This document shows positions 2,692 to 58,331 of a DNA stretch of 64,000 nt, in pieces (position 1 is the stretch's first letter; each line of letters starts with the position of its first letter). A model generated the notes under the pieces. That model was not told the origin of the DNA, ran no database searches, and saw only the letters and a list, made by a program, of their open reading frames with translations. The translations under genes were made by a program, and so were the position numbers. Source of the stretch: an uncultured Candidatus Actinomarina sp. (GTDB lineage: Bacteria; Actinomycetota; Acidimicrobiia; Actinomarinales; Actinomarinaceae); assembly GCA_902510055.1 (NCBI GenBank), contig CABWZY010000001.1:212-64211 (forward strand), in the 5' to 3' direction.

Positions 2692-3510
2692 ATGAAGCCA
2701 AGAATTGCTGTTTTTTTACAACCCCAACATGCAGAATATGATCAAATAAGAAACGCTGCATTAGAGGCAGAGGAAATAGGTGCAGATGTTATTTATAACT
2801 GGGATCATTTCTACCCTTTATATAAAGAAGATGGAACTCAGTGGGCTGAAGGAGAAAGAAGAGAAGGAAAACATTTTGAGTGTTGGACAATGTTAGCTAG
2901 TTGGGCTGAAGCAACTAGTACAGTAGACATAGGTCCTCTTGTTACATGTAACTCATACCGAAATCCTGAGTTATTAGCAGACATGGCAAGAACTGTTGAT
3001 CATATATCAAACGGAAGAGCAATACTAGGAATAGGTTCTGGCTGGTTTGAACAAGATTATGATGAGTATGGTTATGAATTTGGTTCTGCAATTTGGAGAC
3101 TCCAAGAACTTGAGAAATCATTAGAAAGAATTGTTGAGAGAATGAAGAAGCTAGACCCTCAACCAACAAGAAAAATCCCAATACTAATTGGTGGTGGTGG
3201 TGAAAAAGTGACACTAAGGATAACTGCTCAATATGCTGATATTTGGCATGGTTTTGCAATGAGGACTGAAGAAAGATCCGGAGTTGAAACTGTAGCCCAT
3301 AAAAATAATGTACTAAATAATTGGTGTAAAGAAATTGGAAGAGATCCTAAAGAAATTGAAAGATCAATCGGAATTGACATCAATAGAATTGATAAGGCTG
3401 ATGACTTACTTGAGGCTGGAGCAACTGAATTAACGTTAGCTGTTAATGGTCCTAGTTATGATTTGTCACCTGTAAAAGAATGGATTTCCTGGAGAGATTC
3501 TAAAGGTTAA
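2692..3510 (+). CDS. Luciferase-like (LLM class) F420-dependent oxidoreductase
   Basis: The 272 aa TIM-barrel-like sequence resembles actinobacterial LLM/F420 oxidoreductases (N-terminal PRIAVF..., GRAILGIGSGW). This is a family-level call only. Confidence 0.6.
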   Translation: MKPRIAVFLQPQHAEYDQIRNAALEAEEIGADVIYNWDHFYPLYKEDGTQWAEGERREGKHFECWTMLASWAEATSTVDIGPLVTCNSYRNPELLADMARTVDHISNGRAILGIGSGWFEQDYDEYGYEFGSAIWRLQELEKSLERIVERMKKLDPQPTRKIPILIGGGGEKVTLRITAQYADIWHGFAMRTEERSGVETVAHKNNVLNNWCKEIGRDPKEIERSIGIDINRIDKADDLLEAGATELTLAVNGPSYDLSPVKEWISWRDSKG

Positions 3511-3516
3511 AAATCA

Positions 3517-4440
3517 ATGAGCCTTTACCTTACAATTTTTGGTTTAATTTTAGGATTTATTCTTCTCGTTAAAGGTGCGGAAGAGATGGTTCGCACTGCT
3601 ATTCAAATTGCAATGAAATTTAACATGCCTAATTCAGTAATTGGTGCAACCTTTATAGGTTTTGGAACATCAGCCCCTGAACTATTTGCAAGCTCTGGTG
3701 CAGCATTAAATGGAAACCTATCATTAGGTATAGGAAATATTATTGGTTCCAATATCGCTAACTCATTAGTTGCAATTTCTGTTTTATACTTAGCTTTAAA
3801 TAAAGATTTTAATAAAAAATTAAAGCTTAATAACACTTCTTCAACATGGATGATTATCGTAACAATTATATTTGTAAGTGCATATTTGGTTCTTAAAGAG
3901 TTCCCACTTTACCTTGGAATTGGTTTATTAGGATTAGTAGTTTTTGTTACCTATAAACTTGTTACAGAAGAAGCTGTTGATCAAGAGGATTTATTAATAG
4001 AAAAAAAAGATTATGTTTGGTTGAGAGCTATTGCTTCACTCACAGCAACAATTTTTGGTAGTACATTAGTAGTCAATAATGCCATTACTTTGGCTGAATA
4101 CTTTAATTTATCCTCAATAATTATTGGCGTTACTGTCGTTGCTTTAGGAACAAGTCTCCCAGAAATTGCTGGAACAATAGCAGCTGCGAAAATGAAAAAC
4201 CCAGATATAGTTTTTGGAAATATATTTGGTTCAAACTTATTTAATATTGCATTGGTTGGAGGTGTTTCGGTTTCTATTGCTCCTGGCGTTATTGAAACCG
4301 ATGTAACAAATGAAATGACGATGATGTTTATTGTGTCATTGCTAGTAGTTTTACTATCTAGGTCTGTAGTTAAAAAAAGCTATTTAATTGGATTTATTAC
4401 ATTAATTTCTTATTCAATTTTTATATATACTTTATTTTAA
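3517..4440 (+). CDS. Ca2+/Na+ antiporter (CaCA family, YrbG-like)
   Basis: It has two alpha-repeat signatures (GTSAPELFAS and GTSLPEIAGT) in a polytopic membrane protein. Confidence 0.8.
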   Translation: MSLYLTIFGLILGFILLVKGAEEMVRTAIQIAMKFNMPNSVIGATFIGFGTSAPELFASSGAALNGNLSLGIGNIIGSNIANSLVAISVLYLALNKDFNKKLKLNNTSSTWMIIVTIIFVSAYLVLKEFPLYLGIGLLGLVVFVTYKLVTEEAVDQEDLLIEKKDYVWLRAIASLTATIFGSTLVVNNAITLAEYFNLSSIIIGVTVVALGTSLPEIAGTIAAAKMKNPDIVFGNIFGSNLFNIALVGGVSVSIAPGVIETDVTNEMTMMFIVSLLVVLLSRSVVKKSYLIGFITLISYSIFIYTLF

Positions 4441-5259: not shown

Positions 5260-6141
5260 CTAGATTCCTCTTAAAGTCCATAAAACATCTGCCACAATAC
5301 CTATGAATATAACAGCTAAGTATGTATTTGAAAATACAAAGTATTTTATTGGTAGAATCTTTCTCTTAAACAAGTTATATGATTTATACATTAAATTAGA
5401 ACCAAAGAAAATAGCAATAAACAAATAAATTACCCCTAGTTGCAAAATTGGTGCAGCAACAATTGAGACTATAACTGTTGCGCAAGAATATATAGCTATA
5501 AATATTGATGTCCTTTCATATGTTTCCTGTGTTGAAAGCATTGGAAAATCTGCTTCCTCATAATCTGACTTGTTTTCAATAGCAAATGCCCAAAAATGAG
5601 CAGGTGTCCAAGTAAAAACTAATAAAAATAAAACCCATGTACCTATCTCTAGTGAATTACCTGTTGCAGCCCAACCAATTAATACCGGTGCTGCACCTGA
5701 AGCTCCCCCAATAACAATATTCTGATTAGTTCTTGGTTTTAAAAAAAGTGTATAAATAAATGTATAAAATAAATTTGCTGATAAAGCTATCCATGCTGCT
5801 AGCTGAGTTGTAAAAATATAAAGAATTATAAAACCTGAGATACCACAAAATGCAGCATAGACAATTCCGTTTGTTTTGTTTAGCTCTCCTGTTACAAGAG
5901 GTCTGTCAGAAGTCCTTTCCATTAGCTTATCTCTATCAACTTCAAATACTTGATTCATAACATTCGCACTTATTGCAAGTAGCGTTCCCCCAGCTAACGT
6001 GTATAAAACCAAATCCAAAGGAGGCATACCATATATTGCAATAATCATCGAAGGAACAGTTGTGACTAAGAGTAGTTCGATCACTCTTAATTTAGAAAGC
6101 TTCATGTAGCTACTCAATTTTGAATTCAACTTTGCAACCAT
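5260..6141 (-). CDS. ctaB: Protoheme IX farnesyltransferase (heme O synthase)
   Basis: It has the UbiA-family motif NQVFEVDRDKLMERTSDRPL in a polytopic protein. It is divergent from ctaC. Confidence 0.85.
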   Translation of the reverse strand: MVAKLNSKLSSYMKLSKLRVIELLLVTTVPSMIIAIYGMPPLDLVLYTLAGGTLLAISANVMNQVFEVDRDKLMERTSDRPLVTGELNKTNGIVYAAFCGISGFIILYIFTTQLAAWIALSANLFYTFIYTLFLKPRTNQNIVIGGASGAAPVLIGWAATGNSLEIGTWVLFLLVFTWTPAHFWAFAIENKSDYEEADFPMLSTQETYERTSIFIAIYSCATVIVSIVAAPILQLGVIYLFIAIFFGSNLMYKSYNLFKRKILPIKYFVFSNTYLAVIFIGIVADVLWTLRGI

Positions 6142-17444: not shown

Positions 17445-17469
17445 ATGAATATTGTACTATTAAATAGTG

Positions 17470-27408: not shown

Positions 27409-28434
27409 TTAAATAATATTTATCTTTTCATTATATTGTGTAGTTATTTCGCCTATTTCCCAGATATCAATTCCGTAATTATCTCTTGCTTCTTTAAGGT
27501 TGATATTTCCTTTATCGGGTAGTGAAATTAGCAAACCTCCGCTTGTTTGGGCATCACAAAATATTTTAATTTTCTCTTCCTCAACTTCATATATTAATTT
27601 ATCTTTTATAGAGGCTAGGTTTCTTTCGCTCCCTGAAGGGTAAATGCCTTTATTAAGAAGATCATGTACTCCCTTAATTACTGGAATATTGTCTGAATTT
27701 ATAACTGCTGATAGCTTTGTCCCGTTTATCATTTCTGTTAAATGACCGAGTAATCCGAAACCAGTTATGTCTGTCAGTGCGTTTGCATTATTATCTTTTG
27801 CAAACTTAAGTGCATTTTTATTTAATGCAACCATGTTATTTGTAGCTTCTAGGATTTCTTCCTCTGAAGCCATGTCTTTTTTTATTGCTGTTGCAATGAT
27901 TCCTGTGCCTAGTGGTTTTGTAATATATAGTTTGTCTTTATCTGAAATGCTGTTGTTAAGTAATGGATTGTCTTTTATTACTCCTGTTACGGAAAAACCA
28001 TACTTCGGTTCTTTGTCGTCAATACTATGACCGCCAATAACGGTACAACCTGCTTCACCCATAACGTCAAGGCCTCCATTAATCACTTCAGCCAAGATAT
28101 CAAAACTTATATCTTCTCTGGGCCAACAAACTAGTTGAAGTGCAGATATAGGGTCTCCTCCCATTGCATAAATATCAGACAAGGCATTAGCAGCTGCGAC
28201 TCTTCCCCAGTCATAAGGATTGTCGAGAATTGGTGTAAAGAAATCTACAGTTTGTATAATTTTTGTTTCACCAATGTTGATCACTCCACCATCATCTGGG
28301 TTTTCTAAACCAACAATTAAGTTTTCAGATTTTAGTGCTTTATGTTGTTCAAATTGCTTCAAAACTTGAGCAAGCTCGCTTGGTGCGAGTTTACAAGCTC
28401 AGCCAGAGCCGTGAGAGTATTGAGTTAGTCTCAT
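27409..28434 (-). CDS. selD: Selenide, water dikinase (selenophosphate synthetase) containing selenocysteine (TGA at 28399-28401)
   Basis: The ORF-track version starts at an internal TTG (28362). Upstream in the same frame lie GGAGG, then 4 nt, then ATG (28434), giving MRLTQYSHGSG-TGA-ACKLAPSELAQV. This matches the E. coli SelD N-terminus RLTQYSHGAGCGCK, with TGA at the Cys17 position. Confidence 0.85.
28364..28398 (-). promoter_or_regulatory. Candidate bacterial SECIS hairpin immediately 3' of the selD UGA
   Basis: In the mRNA GCUUGUAAACUCGCACCAAGCGAGCUUGCUCAAGU, the apical stem is CUCGC/GCGAG with loop ACCAA. The lower stem is GCUUGUAA/UUGC(UC)AAGU with a bulge. I folded it by hand only. 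Confidence 0.45.
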
Positions 28435-57059: not shown

Positions 57060-57794
57060 TTAAAAAATATTTCTAGATATAACAACTAATCCTGAAATGA
57101 TTGAAAACCAAATAACTCCATTAGAAATTACTTTGTCTGAAACCTTCATGAATAATTTAGACGAGAGGCTTATTCCAAGAAATGTTGGAATAATCATATA
57201 TAAAAACAAAAAAAAGTGATCTTGATATATTCGACCATCTATTAGTAAAAGAGTTAATGTAATAAGTATCCCGAATGTAAAAACCGCATTCAAAGATGGT
57301 CTAAATTCTTTCCCTTTTGTATCTCTATATAATATTGCTATAGGAGGTCCTCCAACACCTGCAATCATTGCAAAAATGCCTGAAAACATTCCTGCATTAA
57401 ATGAATTCCTAAAATTCCTTTCTAAAGTCCAGCCAAAATAAGAAGCAAGACCAGCAAATAAGACTATCGCACCAACAGTTATTGATAAGATTCTTTGTTC
57501 TAAATAGATTAAACAAAGTAGTCCTAAAGGACCTCCAACAAGCCTTCCAATTAATAAATACTTCATTGGAGACCATATAACCTGTGATCGTTCTCTTCTA
57601 AATATTTTTATCGTTAAGGGAAAAGCTAATAAGCTAAGTAAAGCTGGGACAAGTACAGGATCTATTTGGACAAGAATTGGAGAAGATATTACAGCAAAAC
57701 CATAGCCTAAAAGTCCTTGTATGTATGATGCAATAAATAATAAGGATGCAATAAAGACTAGTTCAAATATTGTTAAGTCGAATGGAATGTTCAA
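57060..57794 (-). CDS. TauE/SafE-family anion permease (DUF81)
   Basis: It is a polytopic 244 aa protein with duplicated glycine-rich TM motifs. Its TTG start overlaps the stop of the upstream selenoprotein gene in a TTGA junction. Confidence 0.75.
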   Translation of the reverse strand: MNIPFDLTIFELVFIASLLFIASYIQGLLGYGFAVISSPILVQIDPVLVPALLSLLAFPLTIKIFRRERSQVIWSPMKYLLIGRLVGGPLGLLCLIYLEQRILSITVGAIVLFAGLASYFGWTLERNFRNSFNAGMFSGIFAMIAGVGGPPIAILYRDTKGKEFRPSLNAVFTFGILITLTLLLIDGRIYQDHFFLFLYMIIPTFLGISLSSKLFMKVSDKVISNGVIWFSIISGLVVISRNIF

Positions 57795-58027
57795 CTAAGC
57801 GCTTTTTCGATTAAACCCAGTATCTCTCCGTCTTCAGTGTGCCTATCTGTTTCTATTTTTGAATAGAGCAAATCACCATTTAAATAAAATTCAAATTTGC
57901 CACCTGAAGTAGGTATTAAGTCGATAGATTTCACTTCTTGACCATATTTTTCTAAAATGTCTTCAACCGTACTAACTGCACGGGGTGTGTAGTTTCAGAC
58001 TACACAGAATTCTAGTTTGATTTCCAT
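57791..58027 (-). CDS. SelW/Rdx-family selenoprotein (CxxU), 78 codons, TGA = Sec at 57995-57997
   Basis: It translates to MEIKLEFCVV-TGA-NYTPRAVSTVEDILEKYGQEVKSIDLIPTSGGKFEFYLNGDLLYSKIETDRHTEDGEILGLIEKALS. The CxxU follows beta-1, and SGG.FE....G.L.YSK is the Rdx/SelW pattern. It is absent from the ORF track because the TGA splits it. A TGATAGTAT extended -10-like element ends 6 nt before the ATG, so the mRNA may be leaderless. Confidence 0.8.
57986..58006 (-). promoter_or_regulatory. 8-bp perfect hairpin presenting the Sec UGA in its loop, with a longer imperfect hairpin downstream (SECIS candidate region 57960-58006)
   Basis: The mRNA UGUGUAGU-CUGAA-ACUACACA has the UGA inside the 5-nt loop. 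Downstream, AACUAC...GUA(CG)GUU and CCGU...ACGG can pair in alternative ways. I folded it by hand only. Confidence 0.35.
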
Positions 58028-58076
58028 AATGAAATACTATCACAAGAAGATAGTAAATATAAAGTTTTGTAAAAGC

Positions 58077-58105
58077 TTGCATGCTACAAGTAAAGTTGTT
58101 AATCT
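58077..58105 (+). promoter_or_regulatory. Possible promoter of the mini-protein/copZA operon
   Basis: TTGCAT (58077-58082), 17 nt, then TAATCT (58100-58105). The palindrome would then cover the transcription start region. Confidence 0.35.
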
Positions 58106-58122
58106 TGTGAATATATTCACAA
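58105..58122. promoter_or_regulatory. 18-bp perfect palindrome containing an exact TGTGA-N6-TCACA core; candidate operator
   Basis: TTGTGAATATATTCACAA lies 14 nt upstream of ATG 58137, in the divergent region shared with the selW-like gene. Confidence 0.55.
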
Positions 58123-58136
58123 AGTAAAGGGAAGAA

Positions 58137-58331
58137 ATGACTGACGGACTAAAAGCTAGTCAAATAAAAGGTGGCATTAGGCCATCAAAAAGTTTTGAAC
58201 AGGGTCGTACTTGTAACGATGAGTCTTGCGAAACAAAATTGAGTATTTATAACAAGAGAAATCATTGTTTTAATCATGCTCCAGTTAAGTATCCAAGAGT
58301 TAGAGGAAGAATACTTCAAGAAACAGCTTAA
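58137..58331 (+). CDS. 64 aa C-x4-C-x12-C-x2-H mini-protein, first cistron of the copper operon (paralog of 36144-36335)
   Basis: The RBS AAGGGAAG precedes the ATG. It aligns without gaps to the dnaK-operon copy, with all Cys/His ligands and the SIYNK and YPRVRG blocks conserved. Confidence 0.6.
   Translation: MTDGLKASQIKGGIRPSKSFEQGRTCNDESCETKLSIYNKRNHCFNHAPVKYPRVRGRILQETA

Follow-up and report, generated by a model that had tools for sequence, protein, structure and literature searches.

The stretch analysed here (the window) comprises 64,000 nucleotides of contig CABWZY010000001.1 from an uncultured Candidatus Actinomarina sp. On its minus strand, directly upstream of a permease gene of the TauE/SafE (TSUP) family, positions 57791-58027 very probably represent a functional gene for a SelW-like selenoprotein of the Rdx family, in which the UGA at codon 11 would be decoded as selenocysteine (Sec). 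Gene callers miss the gene because codon 11 is UGA, probably read as Sec; the standard list of open reading frames (ORFs) contains, in this frame, only a C-terminal fragment of 47 amino acids (57791-57934, GTG start at 57934). An earlier note, made from the letters of this DNA alone, had described a minus-strand frame that stays open for 78 codons if the TGA at 57995-57997 is decoded, and translation of the region reproduced it. The coding sequence starts with ATG GAA ATC AAA CTA GAA TTC TGT GTA GTC TGA AAC TAC ACA, and the conceptual product reads MEIKLEFCVV-TGA-NYTPRAVSTVEDILEKYGQEVKSIDLIPTSGGKFEFYLNGDLLYSKIETDRHTEDGEILGLIEKALS-TGA, opening with MEIKLEFCVV-TGA-NYTPRAV and closing with KALS-TGA; the TGA at codon 11 is its sole internal stop. 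The note had placed this frame in a gap of about 340 bp between the TauE gene and a copper operon. The size of the gap was correct (342 bp), but its far border was not, since a conserved ORF of 64 amino acids (58137-58331, plus strand) bounds it, and copZ and copA follow only after that ORF.

Protein family and conservation of the in-frame UGA

Profile searches and structural analyses were carried out with U replaced by C or with a proxy homologue. The proposed membership in the Rdx (SelW/SelT/SelH) family was borne out by the profile search that the note had recommended, the Pfam Rdx profile (PF10262) giving 61.3 bits against a gathering cutoff of 22.6 (E=1.1e-16), with residues 3-74 aligned on profile positions 2-73, that is, 72 of the 74 positions. 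The NCBIfam profile TIGR02174 (CXXU_selWTH) was likewise matched above its cutoff (53.9 against 34.2 bits). Sequence matches in the PDB were 2FA8, 2P0G, 2OJL, 3DEX and 2OBK (E=8e-7 to 9e-3), and the segment FCVVUNY is aligned on YCTQCNW of 2FA8 and on YCRQCNW of 2P0G, with C8 and U11 on the two positions of CxxC; the TGA therefore falls on the second Cys of the redox motif of the Rdx family. Among the orthologues, this CxxU motif is invariant. Because of the stop in the translated frame, AlphaFold2 was run instead on a proxy, a homologue from the database with 97% identity, and the resulting model shows a helix at 15-27, strands at 35-39, 45-49 and 52-56, and a second helix at 68-76. Of the elements of the thioredoxin-like beta-alpha-beta-beta-beta-alpha fold, this moderate model thus contains all but the first strand. 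The best 21 PDB matches of this model in Foldseek were all Rdx-family structures (TM about 0.52).

In a scan using one genome per species, a total of 50 orthologous loci were found, 49 of them from Ca. Actinomarina or OCS155 marine actinobacteria (68-97% identity) and one from a Gemmatimonadetes metagenome-assembled genome (MAG; 44% identity). Orthologues conserving the TGA and the frame around it were among the checks named in the earlier note: TGA is present at codon 11 in all 50 loci, and the frame is kept on both sides of it down to 44% identity. The stop TGA at codon 79 is likewise common to all 49 Actinomarina loci and the window. Third codon positions are variable both before the TGA (8/9 in codons 2-10) and after it (60/67 in codons 12-78), and within codons 2-30 synonymous codon differences outnumber the non-synonymous ones. 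The Gemmatimonadetes homologue keeps the TGA, and has neither the hairpin at 57986-58006 described below nor the TauE neighbour. Two contigs with a typical Actinomarina SelW-TauE locus bear foreign taxon labels, NYXO01000052.1 as part of a 'Methanobacteriota archaeon' MAG and NZKG01000031.1 as part of a 'Marinoscillum sp.' MAG; both labels are probably binning errors.

A protein search yielded 110 clusters and, together with 6 further cluster members, 116 proteins, of which 113 include the N-terminus. In all of these 113 homologues the Sec site is occupied by W and in none by Cys. The same proteins run past the terminal TGA (...KALSWTFHST), resulting in entries of 84 amino acids with a false tail of 6 residues. 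Both features are best explained if translation table 4 was used to call genes on short contigs, and the W-containing catalogue entries provide independent confirmation that the environmental population carries TGA at this site.

Two explanations that dispense with Sec have to be weighed against these data. In one of them, the gene descends from a Cys-type Rdx gene inactivated by a nonsense mutation, and no more than the 47-residue ORF starting from GTG 57934 is made. Standard ORF calling indeed gives this fragment only, and some database entries (P0106) are such truncated calls, but this product would have no redox motif and only half of the domain, codons 2-10 are under coding-type constraint, the TGA is invariant over loci of 44-97% identity, and neither Cys nor another sense codon is found at the site in the 113 homologues. 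The conservation data thus effectively refute a dead gene already, and we give it very little credence. In the other, TGA is a sense codon of the organism, for Trp or Gly, as the 113 database proteins reading CVVW and running through the terminal TGA might be taken to say. In the window, however, TGA serves as the ordinary stop for 8 of the 48 long ORFs, and it ends the SelW-like gene throughout the Actinomarina loci; the read-through tails beyond this stop are not conserved across loci; and the two in-frame TGA codons, of the SelW-like gene and of selD, coincide precisely with positions at which Rdx and SelD proteins are known to have Cys or Sec. With the table-4 origin of the W calls added, an alternative code is the least probable of all the readings considered here. 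Given the use of TGA as a stop, the unconserved tails and an invariant TGA under coding constraint, both the pseudogene and the alternative code are therefore practically excluded, leaving a Sec codon as the preferred reading.

RNA elements around the probable selenocysteine codon

Two hairpins surround or follow the Sec codon. Folding of the single sequence gave both, and so, independently, did RNAalifold on 49 aligned sequences. The downstream hairpin, CCGUGC-AGUUA-GUACGG, corresponds to nucleotides 45-61 of the coding sequence and is a candidate for the bacterial Sec insertion sequence (SECIS). In the bacterial SECIS model, an apical loop of 3-9 nt is carried by a stem of 4-16 bp, a G stands in the first two positions of the loop, mostly followed by G or U, the distance from UGA to the loop is 16-37 nt, and the minimum free energy (MFE) is -7.5 kcal/mol or lower (PMC13188914). 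The downstream hairpin agrees with this model in each respect, having a loop of 5 nt with G at position 2 and then U, a stem of 6 bp, a UGA-to-loop distance of 17 nt and an MFE of -8.2 kcal/mol.

Comparison of the orthologues indicates that the downstream hairpin is conserved as a structure. Standard pairing is found in 168/168 cells (6 pairs in 28 distinct sequences), including the outer pair 45-61, which is C-G in 14 of the distinct sequences, U-A in 13 and G-C in 1, and one further pair that alternates between G-U and G-C. Through the outer pair, the third base of the Pro15 codon is linked to the first base of codon 21, which specifies Val, Ile or Leu. Codon usage within the hairpin is also restricted. 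At 17 sites with four- or six-fold degenerate codons the amino acid never varies, and at only three of these, Arg16 (CGU), Ala17 (GCA) and Val18 (GUU), is the codon itself fixed as well; the three are consecutive and all located in the hairpin, and by our own count, the chance probability of such a placement is 1/680. In addition, Thr20 is ACG in 41 of 42 sequences of a genome that is A+T-rich. The frozen synonymous sites represent the strongest evidence for the hairpin, pointing to a constraint on the RNA on top of that on the protein. Rfam gave no match at the gathering threshold over the whole window, and a permissive scan of 57700-58200 returned chance-level matches only; the coverage of bacterial SECIS elements by Rfam is poor.

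The earlier note had drawn attention to the other hairpin, a perfect 8-bp stem with the UGA in its loop. This hairpin exists as described and is a real feature, but the SECIS role is assigned here to the downstream hairpin. By shuffling, about 12 perfect hairpins of this 8-bp kind are expected per 64 kb and 30 were seen, so that one placed exactly around the UGA of codon 11 would hardly be expected by chance. Within the 28 distinct sequences, 95% of the cells are paired, and there is one double change between GC and AU, the replacement of Val9 by Ile (GUA to AUA or AUU) being accompanied by the synonymous change UAC to UAU at Tyr13 in 14 of 15 distinct sequences. Based on these properties, the UGA-in-loop hairpin, rather than the downstream one, could be the recoding or regulatory element, and might keep release factor 2 away from the UGA or pace the ribosome. 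Several observations speak against this. With the UGA positioned in the A site, the whole stem is enclosed in the mRNA channel of the ribosome, and its two arms must be unwound. The hairpin also falls outside the UGA-to-loop geometry of the bacterial SECIS model. Among the orthologues, it is mismatched in several lineages (the loci L003 and L004 and the clades of L006 and L022), broken in another locus (L017) and absent from the Gemmatimonadetes homologue (L050), and its covariation amounts essentially to one evolutionary event. The residues specified by its two arms (C, V, N, Y and T) are invariant, so that the symmetry may partly be a by-product of coding. Such a role is thus unlikely for the UGA-in-loop hairpin and, because this hairpin is mismatched, broken or absent in some lineages and would lie inside the ribosome, the functional SECIS is most likely the downstream hairpin.

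Selenocysteine pathway, permease and upstream region

The positions of the features under discussion are collected in the table.

Table. Location in the window of the SelW-like gene, its RNA elements and associated genes
Feature	Position	Strand	Remarks
SelW-like (Rdx family) selenoprotein coding sequence	57791..58027	-	78 codons + stop; ATG 58025-58027; stop TGA 57791-57793
CxxU redox motif, Cys8-Val-Val-Sec11	57995..58006	-	Sec codon TGA 57995-57997
Candidate bacterial SECIS	57967..57983	-	6-bp stem CCGUGC/GUACGG; apical loop AGUUA; starts 11 nt after UGA
Perfect 8-bp hairpin, UGUGUAGU-CUGAA-ACUACACA	57986..58006	-	Sec UGA in 5-nt loop; -8.2 kcal/mol
Extended -10-like element, TGATAGTAT	58034..58042	-	ends 6 nt before ATG; no Shine-Dalgarno sequence
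TauE/SafE (TSUP) family permease gene	57060..57794	-	Pfam TauE 82.5 bits; TTG start overlaps SelW-like stop (TTGA)
selD (selenophosphate synthetase), itself a selenoprotein gene	27409..28434	-	Sec TGA 28399-28401; TIGR00476

The Sec pathway is represented in the window by selD, the product of which (U replaced by C) matches TIGR00476 with 380.8 bits against a cutoff of 125 and carries the N-terminus MRLTQYSHGSGU-ACK. Its Sec codon lies 29.6 kb from that of the SelW-like gene, and the earlier count of two Sec codons within about 30 kb therefore stands. When 24 ORFs of the window and the reconstructed selD (U replaced by C) were compared with Pfam or NCBIfam, selD was the only member of the Sec pathway. 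For the genus, a survey of 84 complete Actinomarina genomes reports that each contains selA, selC, selD and a divergent selB; it also reports about five selenoproteins predicted per genome by deep-Sep, and a Sec-form selD with the MRLT prefix, as in the window (bioRxiv 10.64898/2026.04.03.716425). The note had made its claim dependent on the presence of Sec machinery, and in favour of the claim stand the Sec-containing selD in the window and selA, selB and selC as reported for the genus in the same preprint. The selD gene is preceded by a strong Shine-Dalgarno sequence, AGGAGG, and the fold downstream of its UGA, with the loop ACCAA and at a distance of 14 nt, is unlike the SECIS candidate of the SelW-like gene.

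The SelW-like gene and the permease gene on the same strand overlap by 4 nt in the window, and the overlap of the stop codon of the former with the TTG of the latter, as TTGA, is present in 49/49 Actinomarina loci. The permease protein is conserved from residue 2 on, with synonymous variation, and a stop codon is located just upstream in the permease frame; the TTG is therefore the start of the permease. The overlap suggests a translational coupling of the two genes, for which an arrangement of this kind is typical. In one single-cell assembly (L009, about 3234-3970), a frameshift leaves only 77 codons of the TauE ORF; this is probably a sequencing error, the near-identical locus L008 being intact.

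A possible connection of the permease with Sec itself was considered in several forms. The preprint describes a selenoprotein group 'matching K07090', and K07090 is given in its supplement as a TSUP family transporter (bioRxiv 10.64898/2026.04.03.716425). The TSUP gene of the window contains no in-frame TGA, and a Sec-containing permease made through a TGA-containing upstream extension was rejected, as TAG (or TGA/TAA, with no start codon) stands directly upstream. The K07090 group cannot in every case be the SelW-like gene mapped onto the overlapping TSUP gene, given the genome counts (59+35+49 against 113); part of the group may be a mapping artefact of an overlap-based assignment. In the literature searched, neither a link between TSUP/TauE and SelW nor a conserved functional module of SelW and TSUP was found. 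It is also conceivable that the Sec codon acts as a selenium gate for the permease, the translation of which could depend on ribosomes having decoded the UGA as Sec, because the UGA stands as early as codon 11, the mRNA is probably leaderless and the weak TTG start overlaps the stop throughout the Actinomarina loci. If this were true, expression of the permease would follow the supply of selenium, with the UGA-in-loop hairpin as a possible means of tuning the decision; we consider the gate doubtful.

With respect to initiation, the -10-like element TGATAGTAT, or TATGATACTAT in its place, ends 6-7 nt before the start codon in all clades, while the remaining upstream DNA is unrelated between clades; in all upstream alignments of the orthologues, TA(G/C)TAT or TAGTAA is kept at this position. 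Upstream of the SelW-like gene, a scan with the sigma-70 consensus detected no promoter; the -10-like motif is visible only in the orthologue alignment. The conserved element so close to the ATG, together with the lack of a Shine-Dalgarno sequence, suggests a leaderless mRNA, and the SelW-like transcript is probably leaderless or nearly so. Leaderless mRNAs are common in actinobacteria. Elsewhere in the window, TA(C/G)TAT directly before the start codon, again with no Shine-Dalgarno sequence, is observed for the starts at 17467 (+) and 14106 (+) and for a minus-strand ORF starting at 6141, which suggests that leaderless or Shine-Dalgarno-independent initiation is common in this genome.

The spacer between the SelW-like gene and the divergent ORF of 64 amino acids contains a perfect palindrome, TTGTGAATATATTCACAA (TGTGA-N6-TCACA), at 58105-58122, which corresponds to the CRP/GlxR-type consensus. 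It is located about 23 nt before the start of the 64-residue ORF and is kept in every locus with both genes adjacent. The ORF itself is Cys-rich (...C-x4-C-x-T-x-LS-x-YN...C-x2-H...) and has no match in Pfam or NCBIfam. Of 48 Actinomarina loci inspected, 47 contain it at about 90% conservation, the exception being a locus with a short upstream flank (L034), and it adjoins the SelW-like gene in one clade and lies about 2 kb away in the other.

Proposed mechanism and relation to known systems

Based on these observations, we propose that the probably leaderless mRNA is translated from the ATG at 58027, and that the UGA at codon 11 would be decoded as Sec when SelB, which is divergent in Actinomarina and carries Sec-tRNA, binds the SECIS candidate with its 6-bp stem and 5-nt loop 11 nt downstream. 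The product would be a small cytoplasmic redox protein of thioredoxin fold, with Cys8-x-x-Sec11 cycling between the selenol/thiol and the selenenylsulfide forms. Through the overlap of its stop with the TTG of the permease, both proteins would probably be translated together as one module, and the SelW-like protein, thus co-expressed with the TSUP permease, would probably work with the permease or on the substrate of the permease.

Several points weigh against this interpretation. On the protein side, the nearest NCBIfam equivalog, NF041051 (SelTWH_Campy), was matched with 73.3 bits and its cutoff of 88 was not reached, and the protein, as judged from sequence, is related to this subfamily and not a member of it. 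The AlphaFold2 model is only moderate (pLDDT 70.8), the first strand, which bears the redox motif, is not modelled, and the E-values of the Foldseek matches to Rdx structures are weak (0.03-0.5). With respect to the RNA, the SECIS stem is short, the energy limit is only just passed, and the covariation represents few evolutionary events among closely related genomes. As to the machinery, neither selA nor selB was found among the ORFs of the window that were scanned, and tRNA-Sec is absent from the window, which contains no tRNA gene. Finally, Shine-Dalgarno sequences are rare genome-wide, the core being present in only 10 of the 48 long ORFs of the window, so that the absence of one before the permease, once considered as proof of translational coupling, was rejected as such.

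The assignment fills a gap in the annotation of a bacterium that ranks among the most abundant of the ocean, and for which gene callers either miss the gene or use the wrong code. It bears on the question of why a genome of about 1.1 Mb retains the whole Sec pathway, and the Actinomarina protein may explain part of the very large SelW-like signal that has been seen in ocean metagenomes since 2005. General knowledge of selenoproteins is unchanged by this result. The gene is a newly named member of a known family and is ordinary for marine bacteria; in IMG, two homologous clusters, one of them on 892 contigs, are already named 'selenoprotein W-related protein'.

Among the selenoproteins of Actinomarina predicted by deep-Sep, the commonest is an 'uncharacterized' family of 78 amino acids with a single Sec, for which no UniRef90 or KofamScan assignment and, by Rfam models, no SECIS was obtained (bioRxiv 10.64898/2026.04.03.716425). 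Judging from genus, length and frequency, this family is most likely identical with the present gene. Compared with that description, the gene is here assigned to the Rdx/SelW-like family and its SECIS candidate is located and given comparative support; the invariant overlap with the TSUP gene and the mistranslated form of the protein in public catalogues are added as well.

In E. coli, the upper stem-loop of the minimal SECIS starts 11 nt after the UGA, and the candidate described here has the same spacing. As in the fdhF-type SECIS and the bSECISearch consensus, a stem-loop in the coding region directly 3' of the UGA has a small loop with G followed by U, and both its energy and its size are within the bSECISearch consensus. 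It differs from the fdhF element in that there is no sequence similarity, the stem contains no bulged U, and an additional hairpin is formed upstream around the UGA.

With respect to the protein, the closest solved relatives are Cys-type homologues, 2FA8 (Atu0228), 2P0G (SelW-related protein of V. cholerae), 2OJL, 3DEX and 2OBK, the CxxC of which is aligned on CxxU and which were also the best structural matches. They contain Cys in place of Sec, share 15-23% identity and are about 25 residues longer, the Actinomarina form having 78 residues as against about 105. To our knowledge, none of these homologues has a demonstrated function.

SelW-like proteins with CxxU constitute a long-established bacterial family with few Cys homologues (PMC2398784, PMC1794560), and they were the most abundant selenoprotein family of the Global Ocean Sampling (GOS) data, with 427 Sec and 56 Cys sequences (PMC2398784). 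Like the SelW-like proteins of the Sargasso Sea and GOS collections, the Actinomarina protein is small and of a single domain, carries CxxU near the N-terminus and the GG.FE block behind it, belongs to marine surface water, and is a case in which the Sec form outnumbers the Cys form. Unlike other bacterial SelW-like proteins, it has the motif context FCVVUNYTPRAV and the fixed overlap with the TSUP gene, and in nothing fundamental does it depart from them.

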